Source of the DNA: Octopus vulgaris
Lineage: Eukaryota
Assembly (NCBI GenBank): GCA_951406725.2
Contig: OX597829.1
Location: 9,982,001-10,046,000, forward strand
Reading direction: 5' to 3'
DNA: 64,000 nucleotides
The first letter of the stretch is position 1, and the number at the start of each line of letters is the position of its first letter. Both the position numbers and the translations under genes were made by a program. Below the pieces are notes generated by a model. That model saw only the letters and a program-made list of their open reading frames with translations, was not told the origin of the DNA and did no database searches. Shown here one piece after another: positions 10,637-50,639 of the stretch.

Positions 10637-10918
10637 CAACAATTGAGGGTAAAATTAATTAATTAATCAATTTTACCAAGTATTCAGTATACAAAGGGAC
10701 CATTTAAGGCGAATTCAAATTATTACATTATATAAAAGGGCTTAGTAAAATAAATTACTTTGCCGCATACTGAACTCATTAGAAATAGCAGCTAAAAAAA
10801 ACTTTTTCAAAAACTATTTCCAATACTTAAAGAAAACCTCTCTCATATAGTGTTTGCTCAATTCAACTCACAAAAGTATGGGGGTAGAGACATTAAAAAA
10901 TCAAATGCAAAGGTTATT

Positions 10919-10971
10919 TGAGAACGTACGTTTCAAGATTAGTCAAAATCGACACTTCTATCATCAGCTCA
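10919..10971 (-). ncRNA. Type I hammerhead ribozyme
   Basis: Minus strand reads UGAG-CUGAUGA-stem II-GAAA-CGUACG-UU|CUCA. Confidence 0.8.
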
Positions 10972-11478
10972 GAACTCCCTGGTTTGGATTTGAAAACACT
11001 GAAAGTGGGAGCATACCCTTTCGGCTTGTTATCACTTCTGAAGATCTGCTCAAAACTAACAGTGCCAGCAAATTCAAATATGCAAGCGAAGAATTTCTGC
11101 TCTCCCCTTTCCACCAGCGTGGGTTAAAATCAGCAAACACTATGCTTTTTTCGGTAAAATCCGAGGCATTATATAGAGAGAGATGAATTATAATTTCAAC
11201 AATTGAGGGTAAAATTAATTAATTAATCAATTTTACCAAGTATTCAGTATACAAAGGGACCATTTAAGGCGAATTCAAATTATTACATTATATAAAAGGG
11301 CTTAGTAAAATAAATTACTTTGCCGCATACTGAACTCATTAGAAATAGCAGCTAAAAAAAACTTTTTCAAAAACTATTTCCAATACTTAAAGAAAACCTC
11401 TCTCATATAGTGTTTGCTCAATTCAACTCACAAAAGTATGGGGGTAGAGACATTAAAAAATCAAATGCAAAGGTTATT

Positions 11479-11531
11479 TGAGAATGTACGTTTCAAGATT
11501 AGTCAAAATCGACACTTCTATCATCAGCTCA
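11479..11531 (-). ncRNA. Type I hammerhead ribozyme (one stem III substitution)
   Basis: As 10919-10971 but GAAA-CGUACA-UU. Confidence 0.7.
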
Positions 11532-11566
11532 GAACTCCCTGGTTTGGATTTGAAAACACTGAGTTC

Positions 11567-11619
11567 TGAGCTGATGATAGAAGTGTCGATTTTGACTAAT
11601 CTTGAAACGTACGTTCTCA
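11567..11619 (+). ncRNA. Type I hammerhead ribozyme
   Basis: tgag ctgatga [11578-11603] gaaa cgtacg tt ctca. Confidence 0.8.
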
Positions 11620-11803
11620 AATAACCTTTGCATTTGATTTTTTAATGTCTCTACCCCCATACTTTTGTGAGTTGAATTGAGCAAACACTATATGAGAGAG
11701 GTTTTCTTTAAGTATTGGAAATAGTTTTTGAAAAAGTTTTTTTTAGCTGCTATTTCTAATGAGTTCAGTATGCGGCAAAGTAATTTATTTTACTAAGCCC
11801 TTT

Positions 11804-11878
<75 letters not shown>

Positions 11879-33239: not shown

Positions 33240-33746
33240 AATAAATCTCTGAGCGAGGTATAAACAGTAACTGCTCTATAATATAAGCGGGATCAGCCAT
33301 CTGAATGTGGCTAGGGACAGGGCGGGGTGGTGGGGGTGTTACTGATGCATTTAGCCCCAGGCGATTATCGACGTCACCAGAAGAGCCGACACCATCACGG
33401 TGTCCTTGCTAGCCTGCAAAGGGAGATCAGCCTCACCGAAGATACGGATTTTCTACGCCAGTGACTGTGGTTACTGTGAAAATCTATATATATCTGGCCT
33501 GTACAAGAAGTTCCTCAGCGAAGAACGGTGCTTGCCATGCGCTGACAAGAGGCAAATACCTCGAAACCGGTCCGTGTGTAGCATCCGTATCTTCGGTGAG
33601 GCTGATCTCCCTTTGCAGGCTAGCAAGGACACCGTGATGGTGTCGGCTCTTCTGGTGACGTCGATAGTCGCCTGGGGCTAAATGCATCAGTAACACCCCC
33701 ACCACCCCGCCCTGTCCCTAGCCACATTCAGATGGCTGATCCCGCT

Positions 33747-33755
<9 letters not shown>
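33240..33755 (+). mobile_element. Fold-back element with a hammerhead in the spacer, within (TA)n
   Basis: 173-bp arms 33277-33449/33583-33755 with one mismatch seen. Confidence 0.85.
33536..33578 (+). ncRNA. Minimal type I hammerhead, G8A variant
   Basis: catgcg ctgacaa gagg-caaata-cctc gaaa ccgg tc|cgtgtg. Confidence 0.65.
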
Positions 33756-39058: not shown

Positions 39059-40314
39059 CAGAGTGCGTAACATTTGAGAACAGATTTATGTTTATATAAA
39101 AAGAAACAGATATATAATAACGGATAATAAAATGTTTTCTCAAAAAATGCTATGAGGATAAAAATAAACCTTATCTATAATGTTATTCAATAAAGTCACC
39201 TTCAGCTTCAACGATTGCTTCTATGCGAGATCTAAATCACCTACGTGCTCCGAATCAAGTGGTCCTGGTTCATTTTGGACATTACTCTGACTATGGCAGC
39301 CTTCAAAGAATCTTTGATATTATGAGCATGTTCATTGACCTCTCTCTCAAGAACGCTCCACATGTAATAGTGTAATGGATTGAGATCTAGGGAATTAGGA
39401 GGCCAAATGTTAGGGGTTATGTGATTATGAAAATTTTCAGCCTTCCACTCCTGTGTTACTAGAGCCATGTGTGATAGCGTAGAGTCTTACTAAAACACAT
39501 ATGGCCTTCCATTGCTTACACTGACTATCCAGGGCTTAACAATTATTTCTAGGGCCTTAGTGTAGGCGGCAGAGTTAACTCAAGGACATTGTGGTAAGAA
39601 GTAAGGGAAGGGGCTTCACATGTCCTTCATTGCTGACAACCCCTAAAACCATGACAGTTGTAGGAAACTTTGCATGCATGACACTTGGAACTTCAGAAGG
39701 GTCTGCACATAAGCATCTGTTATTTCTTCTGTCAACCTTTTGATCTTGGTCGAAGTTTTTCTCATTTGAGAAAAACCAAATCAAATCTGCTGGATTTTTC
39801 AGTCTTTTTAAGAACCTTTTAGATCTGATATTGTGATTTTCTTTTGCTTTTTCTGGCAAACTGACCTTTCTTCATCATATAAGACTTATATCTGATGTCT
39901 TCGTGGACAACGTTTCTGACTGCTTCTTCTGACACATGGAGATATTTTGCAATAGACCTCATGGACTTTGTAATCAATGGTCTGTTGAATTTGCTGGATA
40001 AATTCAGGTGTTCTGATGATTTCAGAGTGTTTAGACTGCTTTTTACGCTTTGATACTGGGGAAACATTTCCATCTTCAGTGTCTAGCTCTTTACAAACTT
40101 TGAAGACGAAAGCACAGGCAACTTTAAATAATCGAGATATTTCTAAATCGCTATGCTCAAACTTTATAACCACAATAACAGCATGCCTCTTCATTTCTTG
40201 AGTTAGCTGAGGGTCTGCCTTTATTGTTTTCTGAAACAAAGATTATACAGAGTCAGCAAAAAACTGCAGCAATGACCCGAAAACGTTATGACCTCAAATA
40301 ACTTACGCATCCTG
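39059..40314 (-). mobile_element. Decayed Tc1/mariner-superfamily transposon (maT-like)
   Basis: MKRHAVIV..HSDLEISR, WFFSNEKNF, VMVLGVVSNEG and WPPNSLDLNPLHY; imperfect TIRs cagagtgcgtaac / cttacgcatcctg. Confidence 0.85.
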
Positions 40315-40332
40315 AATATATACATATATATC

Positions 40333-40711
40333 GTGAAGTATATTTGCCACCTAAATGTGGCTGACCCATAGGAGACGACGTTACTGTTGTTTATAGCCCC
40401 AGGAAAACATCTCCTACAGCTGGCTATCGACACACCGTCTGTGCCCGATCAGTGATTGCCACACGCTGATGATGGGTTACTACCCAGAAACTCGGGTCTG
40501 TGTGTATCAGGTAAGGCTAGAGATGGCAACGATGATTTCCCTTCGCAAATACTGATCGGGCAACAAAGAGTGCGTCGTTAGCCAGCTGGAGATATATTTC
40601 TGAGGCTATAAACTACAGTAGCATCGTTCCCTATGGGTCACCTACATTTTGGTGGCTAATATACTTCACAATGTCGTGCTGCTACTGTTTATATTTCGCT
40701 CAGAGATTTAT
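40333..40711 (+). mobile_element. Imperfect rod-like fold-back element with a hammerhead in the loop
   Basis: Arms 40333-40459/40545-40669; tail 40670-40711 is shared with 33240-33276 and 8471-8510. Confidence 0.8.
40460..40504 (+). ncRNA. Minimal type I hammerhead ribozyme, canonical core
   Basis: cacacg ctgatga tgggt-tact-accca gaaa c-tcgg-g tc|tgtgtg. Confidence 0.85.
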
Positions 40712-41048
40712 TATTGTATATATATTTTTTTCTCTCCTTGTTTTTTTCTGGTCGGACGCTAGTCAAATGGGCTCCACGTAAGTTGGCCACGTTTACACTC
40801 CTTATTGTGAAATATTTTGTTTTTAAACGTTGTGCAAGATTATTCACTAAAAGACCTGGGAATGTTTCACGTAGAATTCCGCCCCTGTATGGACGAAATT
40901 ACCAAAAGTTTCCAAACTTTCGTGGTTTCTTTTTAGCCATTTTTCATTTTGAAAATGGGATTCAAAGGAATACGTTAGTTGGTGGCATAAATTTGGCACA
41001 GTCCAACTACGTTTCCACAATGAAAATCTAGCGAAACGATTTTCCACA

Positions 41049-41636
41049 TTGGATCTGCATACAGATGACTTGGTGATGGTACTAACTTATTTAGGCCAGA
41101 GGGTGACGGAAGTCACAATAAAAGATGTACCACCTGAAGTCGAAATACAATGGCTAGTCTCTGCCATCTGCTTTGAAATGGCAGAGACAAACATTCTTGA
41201 AATCGCTGTTTTACAACAGAGAAACTGGGTGGGAAAATCAATTCAATTACTCCTTCAGTTGGATGAAACAACAAGAGAAAAGATACCAACCACTATAGAA
41301 CTGCCAGAAGGCTACAAACTCTATGTAGTGGTAGAGGGCAGGCGACCACGTTGCTATCTGTGCGGAAGTGAAGCACATTCAAAAAAGAAGTGTCCAACCA
41401 CTGCACAACAAGAGCAACAACAACAACCACTACTACAACAAAAACACTCCGAGAAAAAAGCACTACTACCCACACCACCGTCAACACCGAAGACGACAAG
41501 AGAAGCACATCAAGCAAATCCATCAATAATCAAAAATAATACAACACCTGAGAAAATACCTGAGAAAATACCAACATCACCAACAACAGCAAGAACTAAA
41601 GGAACAGAAAAACAAAAGAAAATATACAAAAACTGA
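41049..41636 (+). pseudogene. LINE ORF1 (gag-like CCHC knuckle)
   Basis: CYLCGSEAHSKKKC = CX2CX4HX4C. Confidence 0.8.
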
Positions 41637-42269
41637 TTCCCCATCCCCTATACCGCACTCACCACACACAAACACTCAACAATCAACAGCAACGAAAACA
41701 ACAACACAACCACTTACACAGACATACATAGAAGCCTACAACATACCCCTACCCCCTTCTGATTCCTCAGAAAATTCGTCAGAAGATGAAACCAGCGAGG
41801 AATGGCAAATAGCTAGAAAAAGAAGGAAAAAAAAGAGCAGTAAAACAACCAAACCAAATACAAGCACAAACAAAGCAGGGGGATATACACCCCCCGAAGA
41901 CATTTCGAAGCCCACCACAAACAACAGCCACACCAAAAACACAAAAATATGTGCAGCAAACATGCTCACACCAAAAACACAAATTTGATGGAATACATCA
42001 AATAAAAAACAAAGATAACTGATGACATAAAAGCAAACTATCACCCATACACAACACCTCCGGATCACATCAAAATACTACATATATCCAGAAGTCTGCA
42101 CCATACACTAAAAGGCATTTTCCCCAGTGCGGTTGGTAAATGCCAAAAATATCTCACAAAGAAACTGTACTGGGATCTCCTCGAGGACAAACCAAAGGAG
42201 GAGAAAGCAAAAACTTTCGAACAGTAAGTAACCCTCTGTTCCTTTCCCTTGTATTCTAATTCATTAGGA

Positions 42270-44308
42270 TTATGGTCAAGACTGATTGTGAAAATGCGCG
42301 TGGCTTGGGGTCCCCTTAGAAACAAGGGTACCTCTTAAATGACATAAAGTCACACAAGTTAGAAATCATAACCATAAGTGAGACCAGACTCCACAATCCG
42401 CGGGCCCTAAAGACCATGTTTGGCGGACAGTTCAACATTTATTTTCCACCCTGTCCGCCGAGAATGGGCGGTAGTGGCACCGCGGTACTTTTTCGCAAGT
42501 GTCTGGATCTCAAAGTAAAGACAATATTCGTAGACCCGGAGGGTAGACTGGTCGTCCTGGATGTCGACGGAAGCAATGGGTTCTCTTTTCGACTCGTATC
42601 AGTCTACGCACCTCCTTTAACAGGTCGGGCGGATTTCTTTCAACGTCTAGAAGTATTCCTGGGAACGTCTCATCCTTTACTCTTAGTGGGGAATTGGAAT
42701 GCTATCTTGGACACGCATGTAGACTACGTGGGCAGAGATAGGAATAGACGGGAATGCAAATGCCTCAGAGACCTGTTCAGACGCTTTCAACTGTCTGACA
42801 GGTTCCGACTAGACCACCCGAATGCGCCAACGTGGACATGGAGCAAACGCATCGGGTCGTCGAGATAGTATCTAGATAGGATATTGTGTAGGACAGTAGA
42901 GATAGCGTAGGATGACCACAATTCCACATAGTCAGCTACACGGATCACAAACGTGTGACATGTATTCTAGACTTAGGTAAGACACATAGGCAGGGTCCCG
43001 GATACTGGAAACTAAACGCGTCTTTCCCATCGAGACAGGTTTTCAGAGACCGGATTAGCACACTAGTAAAGAGGGCTTTGACGGGAGCCATCATCAACAA
43101 CAAATGGTGGTTCGCCCTCAAGAGAGCAATAAAAGCAGAAGCGATTAGGTACAGCAAAGCACTACCCATATATAGAAACACAGTAGAGGGTGAGCTAGTT
43201 AAGAATCTAGAAGAGGCAATTAGAAGCGGCATCGCATCCGACTTTTGGGCGGCGAGGTTGGCCCTCGACCAACACTTCAACGCCAAGCACGGAGGGTGTG
43301 TTGTCAGAGCTAGGATGCGTGCTCTAAGGAACGAAAGTGTTGGAGCCGCGCGAGAGGCCCAGGTGGAAGAGGCGCAACAGGGCAACAATACCACTATTCG
43401 GTCTCTGGTAAATGAACATCTATCGAGACCTTTCGACATTGCACGTTCGATCCTTCTATACGTATTGACTCTCGAGCCATTATTGCGGAAGCTGGCAACT
43501 CTGAGGGGCATACCGCGAGAATTGGGATGCGGGTCGAGCGTGTCTGCATACGCAGACGACGTCACCGTCATAGTGTGTAGCCACGAGCACAGCGACCTGG
43601 TCAGCGAGACACTGAAAGACTTCGAAGCGGTGACAGGAGCGAATTCAACCGGGAAAAGTCAGTGGTCTTGCGGCTCGGCACCTGGAGAAGCATGCCCATG
43701 CCGCCCACCAGCACCTCCGTCGTGGGACGCTAGACCGACGGTCCGGTCGAGTTGCTCGGGGTCTGGTTTGGTCCGGATCCAAACGGATAAGAACTGGAAC
43801 GAGATAACGAATAGGGTGGTCACTCTCGCCCGGCAATGGGCCGAGTGGAAACTGTCCCTAAATGGTCGGGCGGAGGTGGCGAACTCGTACATCGCGTCCG
43901 TCATCTACTCTCGCCTGACCGTCGTGCCTTGTCCCGACCCTACCATTACCAAACTAGAACGCATTCTCTTTCGCTTCTTGTGGAAAGGATGCGTTCCAAT
44001 GGTCAGGCCATCCATTTGCTGTCAACACCCGTTAAAAGGAGGACTGGGCATGACGTGGTTGATGATGCGCAGACACGCGCTGAGACTGCGACATTTCAGG
44101 ATCTACGTAAACGACGGTGAACAGGTGTGGCCGCCGTTTGTGAGGCACGCTTTCCCGCAGCTCGTCTCCATGACCGAACTGCAGTCGTGGATCAAAAAGA
44201 GGCCGAGGAAGGGCGAATGGCACCGAGAGTGTCGCGTTGCTCTCAAGCAACTCTGCCGTCCCGGGTCGACCTTGAGTGACTTCAACACAACCAAAGCATT
44301 CTATAGGA
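42270..44308 (+). pseudogene. LINE ORF2 (endonuclease/RT), disrupted
   Basis: ISETRL, SVYAP, GNWNA, TDH, GPGYWKLN, YADDVT and PLKGGLG; RT N-terminal motifs are missing near 43415-43450. Confidence 0.85.
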
Positions 44309-44453
44309 GATTTTTTTCTTTTATTTTTTTTCTCCTTTCCCTTTTACGATCCCTTTTGATCGAAAACCTAGCCCACTTTTTTTTCTCCCCATAAAGAAAA
44401 GCTCTACTGTGTAATCTGTCCTGCCTGTGTGCAACCCTCTGTGTCTAATAAAG

Positions 44454-44526
<73 letters not shown>

Positions 44527-44589: not shown

Positions 44590-44683
<94 letters not shown>

Positions 44684-44873
44684 ATAAGATTAGCTCGTAT
44701 ACGAGTGGGTATATATTTGTAAAAAATGAAGTTTGAAAATGCTGCTATATTAGACAAATTTTTAATTTTTATATATATACATTATTTATTTAACATGTTT
44801 CGGTTCTTGAAATGACGAACCTTATCAAAAAAAATGTTATACATAAAAAAGATAGTTCATGCTATCAAATATA

Positions 44874-44997
<124 letters not shown>

Positions 44998-46287: not shown

Positions 46288-47525
46288 CAGGGTGTAGTGA
46301 ATAAATGGTCATCTAAATTACGCAAAAATGAAAATAACACTGACATCTCATTTTAATAGATATATTTACCAAAAGTACATTAAAATATTTTGAGATACTA
46401 AAGAGTAAATTTATTCAATAAAATCGCCATTGGCTTTAACCACAGCCTCCAGACGACTTTGGAATCTCCTGAAATTCTTCTGGGCGGTCTCATTGTTTAA
46501 GTTGGTGAATGCTGCCATAATCCTTGCCTTCAGTTCATCTTTGGTGGACAAAGAGTTTTGGTGGTCCCTCGTTCAACTGCGCCCAGCACATAATAATCAA
46601 TGGGGTTGCAATCTGGGGAGTTAGATGACCAGATGTCAGGGGTGATGTGGTCGCAGAAATTGTCCAACACTCATGACTGGGTTCTCCTACATATGTGGCA
46701 TGCTGCAGAGTCCTGTTGTCAGACGTAGGATCTTTTAGTAGCTAGCCTCTTGATGCAGGGCAGCACTATCTCCTCTAGGTACTTGATGTAGGCCTCCGTG
46801 TTAAGTCTGAAGCCGTGTGGGAAGATGAATGGAGGCATAACGTTGCCATCACTAGTGATCGCTCCAAACACCATGATGTTCTCTGGGAGTTTGATTTTTA
46901 TCACTCTCGGTACATGTTTTGGAGACACTGAAAGCCCACGTGAGTTCTGTGTTGAAAAACCTAAAGCATGTTCGGTTGGAAAGGATCCTTGAATGTGTTC
47001 AAAACCTTCATAGTGCGGTCTTTCCTCTTGTCCTTGATGGCTTGGGATATAAAATTGGTCCTTTCTCATCTTGTATGAAGAATATCGAATGTCTTCATGC
47101 ACTACCTGCCTGAAACTCAGACACTCCCATGACTCTGTAAATAGACCTGATTGACTTGGAGCGATCGTTGTCAATCATGGCGTGGATCTCACCAGCAAAT
47201 TCAGGAGCTTTTTTTCTTATCAGAACGATCAGATTGAGTTTTCCGAGCTGCAGTAACTTCGTAATTACCATTAGACTCATCCAGCTCTTTCCGAATCCTC
47301 TTCACTCTCCTCGGATTGACACCCCAAAACTCTGAAATGTTCGCATTGGAGCTTCCGGTGCGAATGCCAAGCAGTACAGCATGTCATTTCCAAATTTCTG
47401 GCAGAGTGAATTGCGTCACGGTGTCCAACAAACTGGCCATACTATACTGTATAGTCGACAAAATCAGAACCAAACAATGCGCAAAATTAGAAATATAAAA
47501 TGGCAATAATTTATCCCTCGCACCC

Positions 47526-49577: not shown

Positions 49578-49615
<38 letters not shown>

Positions 49616-49646
49616 CAAAATAAGCAGCAAGGATATCCAGAGGTAA

Positions 49647-49738
49647 TGCAGTACGATCGTTTCATGCGACTCCGTTCAATTGAACAATGCAATCATTTCA
49701 TTACATCAATTTAAAATGTAGAGCAATCTTCAGCTGCA
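49647..49738 (-). ncRNA. Type I hammerhead with long stem II
   Basis: Mirror image of 49945-50036. Confidence 0.75.
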
Positions 49739-49944
49739 CAAAGACATAGAATTTAATTAAATTAGAACACATTAGTATAATTTTACCTAAAATAAAAGAG
49801 GATAAGGAGATAAACAAAGAACATGTACCTACATCATAGTCGTAACTGAAATTTCTTTTCAAGAAGACACTGCCAGTCACTGATTTTGTATTTTATGGGG
49901 TCATTTTTAATCTATAGACGAGTATATCACATTCTATGTCTTTG

Positions 49945-50036
49945 TGCAGCTGAAGATTGCTCTACATTTTAAATTGATATAATGAAATGATTGCATTGTC
50001 CAATTAAATGGGGTTGCATGAAACGATCGTACTGCA
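49945..50036 (+). ncRNA. Type I hammerhead with long stem II
   Basis: tgcag ctgaaga [63-nt stem II] gaaa cgatcg ta|ctgca. Confidence 0.8.
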
Positions 50037-50639
50037 TTACCTCTGGATATCCTTGTTGCTTATTTTGATTTTAATCACCTTATTTTGAAATTGTATGGAT
50101 AATACCATACTCAATTCTGGTGCCTCAACTTAAGTACCATATTCATCTGAATGTAAATTTTTACTGAATATATCTTGTATATAAATATATATATACCTAT
50201 ATAGATATATACACACACATATATATATGTGCGTGTGTGTGTGTATGTGTGTGTGTGAGTGTGTGTATGTGAGTGTGTGTGTACAGAGTGCGTCAGTTTT
50301 TTCGAGAGACCTCTTTCAAGAGCTCTTACTTAATATTATAAGTAAATATATCGGTTCCAAATTTTGGTACGGTGTCAACAAATTCAGGGGATGGAGTAAG
50401 TCGATTACGGCGACCCCGGTTTTCAAATGGTACTTAATTTTTCGACTCCGAAAAAATGAAAGTCAACCTCGGTAGCATTTGAACTTAGAACGTAAGGACG
50501 GGGGAGATGCTAGCACGAACTTTCATCGATGTGCTAACGATTCATAATCTAAAGTTTAAGTGGCATTTTTGCTTAGTACTGAAGCGTCCTTAATTCAGCA
50601 GGCCATTAATTTAGGGGCTATTTAAATAATTATCTAGTA

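Follow-up and report, generated by a model that had tools for sequence, protein, structure and literature searches.

A rod-like hammerhead locus in Octopus vulgaris: two head-to-head pieces of a common 357-nt repeat, likely joined at a Penelope-like insertion

Viroids and viroid-like circular RNAs have a rod-like fold and carry a hammerhead. A genomic locus of the same appearance raises the question of whether it encodes an RNA selected for that form or has come to it by another route. Such a locus is found in a 64,000-nt stretch of the Octopus vulgaris genome (contig OX597829.1; hereafter the window), which is rich in microsatellites. An earlier note on this DNA described, at 40333-40711, an imperfect rod with an intact hammerhead and the splice donor CAG|GTAAG in its loop, and offered two readings, an old inverted duplication whose ribozyme stayed intact or a selected rod-like RNA. 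The rod, the hammerhead and CAG|GTAAG are all present in the sequence. We conclude that the rod very probably consists of two head-to-head pieces of a common 357-nt hammerhead repeat, likely joined at the insertion of a Penelope-like element (PLE).

The segment 40333-40711 folds at -188.6 kcal/mol (z = -14.1), a value equalled by 0 of 100 shuffles. Self-match and fold place the two arms at 40330-40459 and 40545-40672, about 130 nt each, and leave 40673-40716 unpaired. The arms are separated by 22 substitution mismatches and one 3-nt bulge; the 21 mismatches within the trimmed arm overlap are 5 G·U, 7 A·C and 9 transversions, including 4 U·U. The minus strand folds equally well (plus -186.3 vs minus -190.0 kcal/mol). 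The inverted and forward pieces overlap by an imperfect 8 nt, 40452-40459. An assembly artefact is unlikely, because both junctions are spanned by contigs, the inversion junction in run X17 (40374-40489, 2 differences) and the right-hand junction in run X19 (40686-40780, 1 difference), with the reservation that either run may be the assembly's own sample. The locus is laid out as follows.

40316..40329, no strand: (TA)n-rich left flank, likely insertion site (sequence; (TA)n after 9/11 BLAST-picked tail-less ends)
40330..40459, minus strand: inverted, 5'-truncated, tail-less repeat piece (unit columns 183-312), the left arm (BLAST to the natural unit L013:1412-1768, 87%)
40452..40716, plus strand: forward 5'-truncated repeat piece (unit columns 90-356) that includes the hammerhead, the right arm and the tail (BLAST, 85%)
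40460..40504, plus strand: type I hammerhead, predicted cleavage after C40498, with 2-bp stem III and near-palindromic loop (sequence; core conservation)
40508..40515, plus strand: CAG|GTAAG, donor-like through a rare allele at 40510 only (column 148 counts; folds of L013 and L011)
40545..40672, plus strand: right arm of the rod (unit columns 183-312; self-hit 40330-40672 and fold)
40673..40716, plus strand: 44-nt tail (45 nt in the unit), in the forward piece only (3' end pile-up of 185 segments)
40717..40724, no strand: (TA)n right flank (sequence)
40749..44456, plus strand: decayed L1/Tx1-like LINE with zinc-knuckle ORF1, APE endonuclease and deleted RT (PF03372, E 1.4e-11)

Contig depth in runs X17 and X19 is several times higher over 40680-40716 (last 35 nt of the tail) than over the hammerhead, and the tail-end contigs carry differing upstream sequence in their loose ends; other families may share the end of this tail. 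Further long inverted repeats, 94-99% complementary, occur in the window at 11284-11814, 10724-10998, 33277-33755, 49610-50073 and 1505-2057/13066-13618, and some of these may be further fold-back insertions.

Both pieces of the rod belong to a large family. A search of the 2.8-Gb assembly (227 contigs) with the window repeat gave 4631 first-look candidates, and the 40 that were scored have 76-86% identity, taking the best match per locus. A 21-nt tail motif has 295 exact matches genome-wide, compared with 0 for the control. We used one natural copy, L013:1412-1768 (357 nt), as the reference unit and mapped it onto 84 distinct loci, which gave 185 segments; duplicates, 22 loci and then 4 more in the tail-picked sample, had been removed ahead of the counts. 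Units are arranged head-to-tail with a period of 357-359 nt, with 21 exact tandem junctions, and 41 exact tail-less ends adjoin ATATAT. The 5' ends of the segments are spread, and the 3' ends fall at two places 45 nt apart, column 312 (46) and columns 355-357 (83), counts that are inflated since the patterns used to select loci lay at column 312 for 30 of them and at the column-357 junction for 21. The same two 3' ends recur in the BLAST-picked and tail-picked sets. The unit has a G+C of 0.43 and is non-coding: there is no stop-free frame longer than 81 aa lying mostly within the window copy. Partial dimers occur (L041, L084, C9:47037738); arrays of three or more whole units were not seen in the loci examined, and the window copy does not hold two consecutive units with whole hammerheads. 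Contigs of the family, including tandem joints, are present in four runs guessed to be RNA, although contigs of this kind cannot reveal strand, ends or circles. Divergence of the forward arms is similar at paired and unpaired positions (6.6% vs 7.4%) and thus gives no hint that the rod as such is conserved or mutagenised. Rates of A>G (0.022) and T>C (0.025) are close, so A-to-I editing of the template was not seen. Judged by these sequence features, the class is that of a non-LTR retrozyme or non-autonomous Penelope-like element. Neither a viroid-like rod nor an intron is supported.

The splice donor reported in the loop is not supported, since the G that makes CAG is found in only 3 of 85 copies. 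At column 148 (40510) the copies have C 69, T 12, G 3 and A 1, the C of the family belonging to a CpG under decay; C is likewise read at this position in contigs of other copies. Column 151 (donor +3) is divided between A 52 and C 32 (C in 32/87 by another count), and the G of the donor GT is lost in 19/85 copies, which equals the CpG rate. The folds of the intact units L013 and L011 put the CAG|GTAAG stretch in an internal loop predicted within an extended stem I, which CTAGC/GCTAG closes; the window copy has lost the 5' strand of this outer helix at its breakpoint. None of the contig joints listed matches a splice from CAG|GTAAG. A spliced PLE 5' intron was rejected because the donor is not conserved, the CAG allele being so rare and the +3 position split.

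Read directly from the sequence, stem I of the hammerhead is 40460-65/40499-504, followed by CUGAUGA (40466-72), stem II (40473-77/40482-86), GAAA (40487-90), a 2-bp stem III with a 4-nt loop, and GUC (40496-98). All 11 canonical core nucleotides are present. Calling it fully canonical, as the earlier note did, is correct for the core and slightly overstated for stem II, which begins U-A; the available text of PMC4209133 describes G10.1-C11.1 in this stem as highly conserved. Inside the rod, stem III has a pairing probability of 0.0. An Rfam scan of the window gave no family at the gathering score and no hammerhead at E<=10. The available text of PMC4209133 describes type I hammerheads of this form, whose stem III has 2 bp and a near-palindromic loop, as weak when single and active when paired as dimers. 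The window copy has one core, and none on the other strand. The lone copy would be expected to show weak cleavage and, as two sites are needed to excise a circle, to release none; it has no pair of ribozyme sites that would release a unit-length circular RNA.

Across the family, the 11 core columns are changed in 17/821 cases (2.1%), as opposed to 1510/23844 (6.3%) at quiet non-core columns. We found 4/367 core changes in loci that had been selected by patterns in other parts of the unit, 16 changes against 46.8 expected from trinucleotide context, and 5/156 against 554/6097 when a fresh sample was drawn. Of the 64 spanning segments, 52 keep every one of the 11 core nucleotides. CpGs of stem I decay to wobble pairs more than to mismatches (46/148 vs 29/148), and other CpGs lean the opposite way. 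The p-values for these comparisons are too small because the copies share ancestry, though the core effect recurs across samples. Thus the constraint sits on the ribozyme in the family's history, and the rod is unconstrained. The earlier argument that an intact core beside diverged arms favours constraint is right for the ribozyme in the family's history; the chance of an intact core in the window copy alone is about 48%. Of the two outcomes that the same note set against itself, private mismatches were found (see below) and decay of the core at the neutral rate was not (2.1% vs 6.3%). Within loci, cores differ at only 4/146 cells and arms at 12.3% of non-CpG columns, a contrast that two arms identical at first and simply decaying since would not produce. 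The templates of the arms may have been units that had diverged beforehand, or two RNA molecules, and each round of mobilisation may have acted as a filter on the core. This gap between core and arm divergence provides a genomic test of two RNA templates for the two arms.

The ends of the copies bear the marks of PLE insertion. The features described for PLEs in the available part of 10.1101/2021.04.23.441226 are an inverted 5' copy and a one-sided tail of 30-40 bp, and the accessible text of PMC11167929 reports, for PLE activity in vitro, two start sites for reverse transcription (RT), nicking of both strands and AT-rich targets. The octopus repeat has an inverted 5'-truncated piece beside a forward copy, a tail on one end only and an AT-rich target, for which the 30 loci picked with ATATAT were not counted and 9 of 11 BLAST-picked ends were used. 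The link to Penelope that the earlier note had drawn is thus supported. The tail, at 45 nt longer than the 30-40 bp described, matches the gap between the two internal RT start sites in the part of PMC11167929 that is available. We suggest that a Penelope-like RT and endonuclease, acting in trans, inserted the repeat. The enzyme would have nicked both strands of an AT-rich target, and priming at two internal start sites of the RNA would have given a tailed and a tail-less cDNA; both presumably stopped early and were then joined in opposite orientation. The hammerhead would lie in the loop of the rod only through the point at which the inverted piece stopped. The ribozyme was likely required in the source copies, probably as a dimer within multimeric transcripts. 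Among the points against this explanation, ribozyme mutants of the one PLE tested in vitro still inserted, according to the available text of PMC11167929.

Mobilisation in trans is inferred from the structure of the ends, as no partner sharing the unit was found. The genome contains RT + GIY-YIG elements, many with 781-aa open frames, and in L113 and L118 the ends of these elements likewise lie beside (TA)n with and without a tail. None of 30 GIY-YIG loci contains the unit, the best match among them being 23 nt long (E 0.097). PLE protein matches lie near 4 of 130 family loci, and the 2 that were followed are separate insertions; no RT + GIY-YIG frame is attached to the repeat in the loci examined. 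The Penelope hallmarks of tail and 5' inversion on a retrozyme support PLE trans-mobilisation over plain rolling-circle insertion. As a separate observation, L113, L118 and others form a young PLE family with many 781-aa open frames and a CxxC linker ahead of the GIY-YIG domain, and the repeat of this family has a TATA-like box and a donor-like site. The tailed end of its terminal repeat is found in the window at 44662-44893 (minus strand), 93% identical to L118, and includes a hammerhead-like motif at 44797-44828 in which C3/G8 are replaced by U3/A8.

Three other accounts of the locus have to be weighed. One of them, a viroid-like rod RNA under selection that holds the ribozyme in a loop and has a functional splice donor, is extremely improbable. 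The very stable fold, the intact core and its conservation across the family fit such an RNA, as does a whole hammerhead in the loop of 8 of 20 long rods, many of which were picked for likeness to the window. In the remaining 12 of these rods the hammerhead is cut, absent or paired, and the rod carries a single ribozyme on one strand only, besides a donor allele confined to 3/85 copies. Among 40 head-to-head junctions in the 84 loci (with L090 counted twice for its two copies), the window's 183/90 breakpoints are found at no other locus; inner breakpoints differ among copies, and outer ends are fixed. The test of mismatch sharing proposed in the earlier note gave the same answer: of the 22 arm mismatches, 11 are confined to the window rod, 8 recur in one further rod and 3 recur in two. 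Selection on an RNA rod should enrich G·U, and the pooled arm mismatches have no such excess (G·U:A·C = 123:130, p = 0.71); nor is one strand preferred, the plus strand folding better in 12/20 rods (p = 0.57). Private mismatches, varying breakpoints and the lack of a G·U excess refute the selected rod; neither the 40 junctions nor the 20 rods reveal a constant rod maintained through compensatory or wobble changes. The inverted duplication that was its alternative is supported, but as a routine product of insertion, as 16 of 26 copies picked by their tail alone have an adjacent inverted piece. This frequency also argues against an inversion that post-dates insertion and was produced at a lone forward copy through fold-back replication or repair, as does the fact that inverted pieces end at column 312, like solo tail-less copies, which points to the insertion enzyme. 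In favour of a later inversion, the arms are closer to each other than random copies are (median 11.6% vs 15.9%) and share subfamily alleles, namely a non-majority base at two positions that is common in the family (50/112, 46/132). We regard it as very unlikely.

Another possibility, also very unlikely, is that the repeat is the terminal repeat (pLTR) of an autonomous PLE family that was not found, its copies being extreme 5' truncations and no self-standing retrozyme. An ATG in the core opens a 28-codon frame, much as the ORF of an Anolis element starts at the hammerhead in the accessible text of PMC11167929, and a pyrimidine tract with AG follows the tail. But copies that continue past the tail run into the start of their own unit (31/77 tailed ends by a strict script rule), and upstream of a unit lies the preceding one, in no case the end of an endonuclease. 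The preferred reading thus remains two pieces of a retrozyme-like repeat joined at a PLE insertion. The window rod is itself ordinary; it serves as a warning that viroid-like folds with a hammerhead are routinely made by Penelope-type insertion.

The LINE to the right of the rod is a separate insertion. It belongs to a microsatellite-flanked family, whose flanks are mostly (TATC)n/(TA)n, and lies beside the rod by a shared taste for microsatellites. A role of the rod as 5' UTR of this LINE was considered and rejected, since the link occurs in no other of the first 30 loci and the repeat in 0 of 48 other loci of the LINE 5' or 3' end. To the left, decayed transposase-like frames at 39241-40315 (minus strand), which we take to resemble Tc1/mariner, end at the (TA)n and have no Pfam hit; a similar decayed frame lies at 46719-47174 (minus strand).

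Related LINEs, with 28-51% amino-acid identity to that of the window, lie beside hammerheads. We are confident that Tx1-like LINEs insert at one site just upstream of several hammerhead families. Their 3' ends adjoin the unit at columns 77-84, and the insertion site, with target duplications, is 21-23 bp ahead of hammerhead cores. In LINE family A (30 of 41 matches fetched, 27 reaching the 3' end, read by eye), 22 of 27 3' ends lie at a hammerhead target, 16 in this repeat and 6 in a second hammerhead family, or 17/22 if the 5 ends first found through the repeat are excluded; another 2 lie in a further LINE copy inside one unit and 3 in neither. By the strict core pattern alone the figure is 11/23, against a background of 24/2842. 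In family B, all 10 pattern-match 3' ends (2 known beforehand) are at CTAG or a one-letter variant followed by a hammerhead core or core-like motif, in four different families. Both proportions (22/27 and 10/10) lie above the threshold for a target-specific Tx1-like LINE, which is that more than 20% of ends share a kind of target and that the target is duplicated. L203 has unit columns 1-96, a 4.9-kb LINE (ORF1, endonuclease, RT) and then the unit again from column 81, and L204 and L147 have the same layout with truncated LINEs; since the unit resumes after the LINE, these are insertions with target duplications of about 7-16 bp or slightly more. An example locus among L203, L204, L147 and L149-L197 is G000:C4:106177626-106182818. 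A 15-nt LINE pattern was discarded because it was no rarer than its control (9 vs 12), and only its 5 true LINE ends were used.

A tentative and rather doubtful reading is that these LINEs home to ribozymes by RNA guidance: transcripts would be cut about 55 nt into the target, and the 3' flank so made would pair with the next target and guide insertion. It builds on the ribozyme being left whole behind the LINE 3' end, so that transcripts could be trimmed there. The genome has at least 4 more type I hammerhead families, whose stems differ from family to family (L158-L166, L184, L187, L188, L190, L194, L195), and some weakly match the 3' half of the unit (69-82%). In L165 and L161, an ORF1-like zinc-knuckle frame runs nearly directly into a family-B 3' end with no RT frame between, which suggests a non-autonomous, ORF1-only LINE derivative. 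Neither the hammerhead repeat family nor a hammerhead as a Tx1 target was found in the literature searched, though Repbase, subscription papers and supplements may hold them. LINEs beside hammerheads of differing sequence would thus be a target class absent from that literature, and one that offers a clear test of protein against RNA guidance.

The window rod resembles viroids in its fold and its hammerhead, but it is a DNA inverted repeat unique to one locus; its single ribozyme has one polarity, and its mismatches show no wobble bias. The repeat is closer to the non-LTR retrozymes of Mytilus galloprovincialis, which the available text of PMC7229834 describes as 350-390 bp type I hammerhead repeats, and has the traits of the class: a type I hammerhead and a head-to-tail unit of 150-450 bp with low G+C and no coding frame. 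By that description, the likeness extends to the 357-nt non-coding head-to-tail unit, the short stem III and palindromic loop, a G+C of 43% and thousands of candidate copies. Unlike the Mytilus retrozymes, the octopus family is seen mostly as truncated monomers and partial dimers with 5' inversions, and long arrays were not seen. The part of 10.64898/2026.07.22.740005 that is available argues that non-LTR retrozymes derive from PLE pLTRs, and calls a retrozyme active when it has two consecutive units with whole hammerheads. PLE insertions (10.1101/2021.04.23.441226 and PMC11167929, as available) share with the family the inverted 5'-truncated copy, the one-sided tail, partial tandems, AT-rich targets and a hammerhead in the repeat; the family differs in its 45-nt tail and in having no RT or GIY-YIG frame. 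Target-specific LINEs of the Tx1 clade, according to the available text of PMC4494074, include Tx1L into Tx1D, Keno into U2, Kibi/Koshi into microsatellites and Tx1-Mar into Mariner-N4. The octopus LINEs, whose placement in this clade is suggested by domain order and resemblance, are likewise APE-type, with a fixed site in a multicopy repeat, target duplications and a tandem pile-up (L198). They differ from these precedents in their target, the 5' strand of the extended stem I of the hammerhead, in at least four hammerhead families that have little in common except CTAG and the core.
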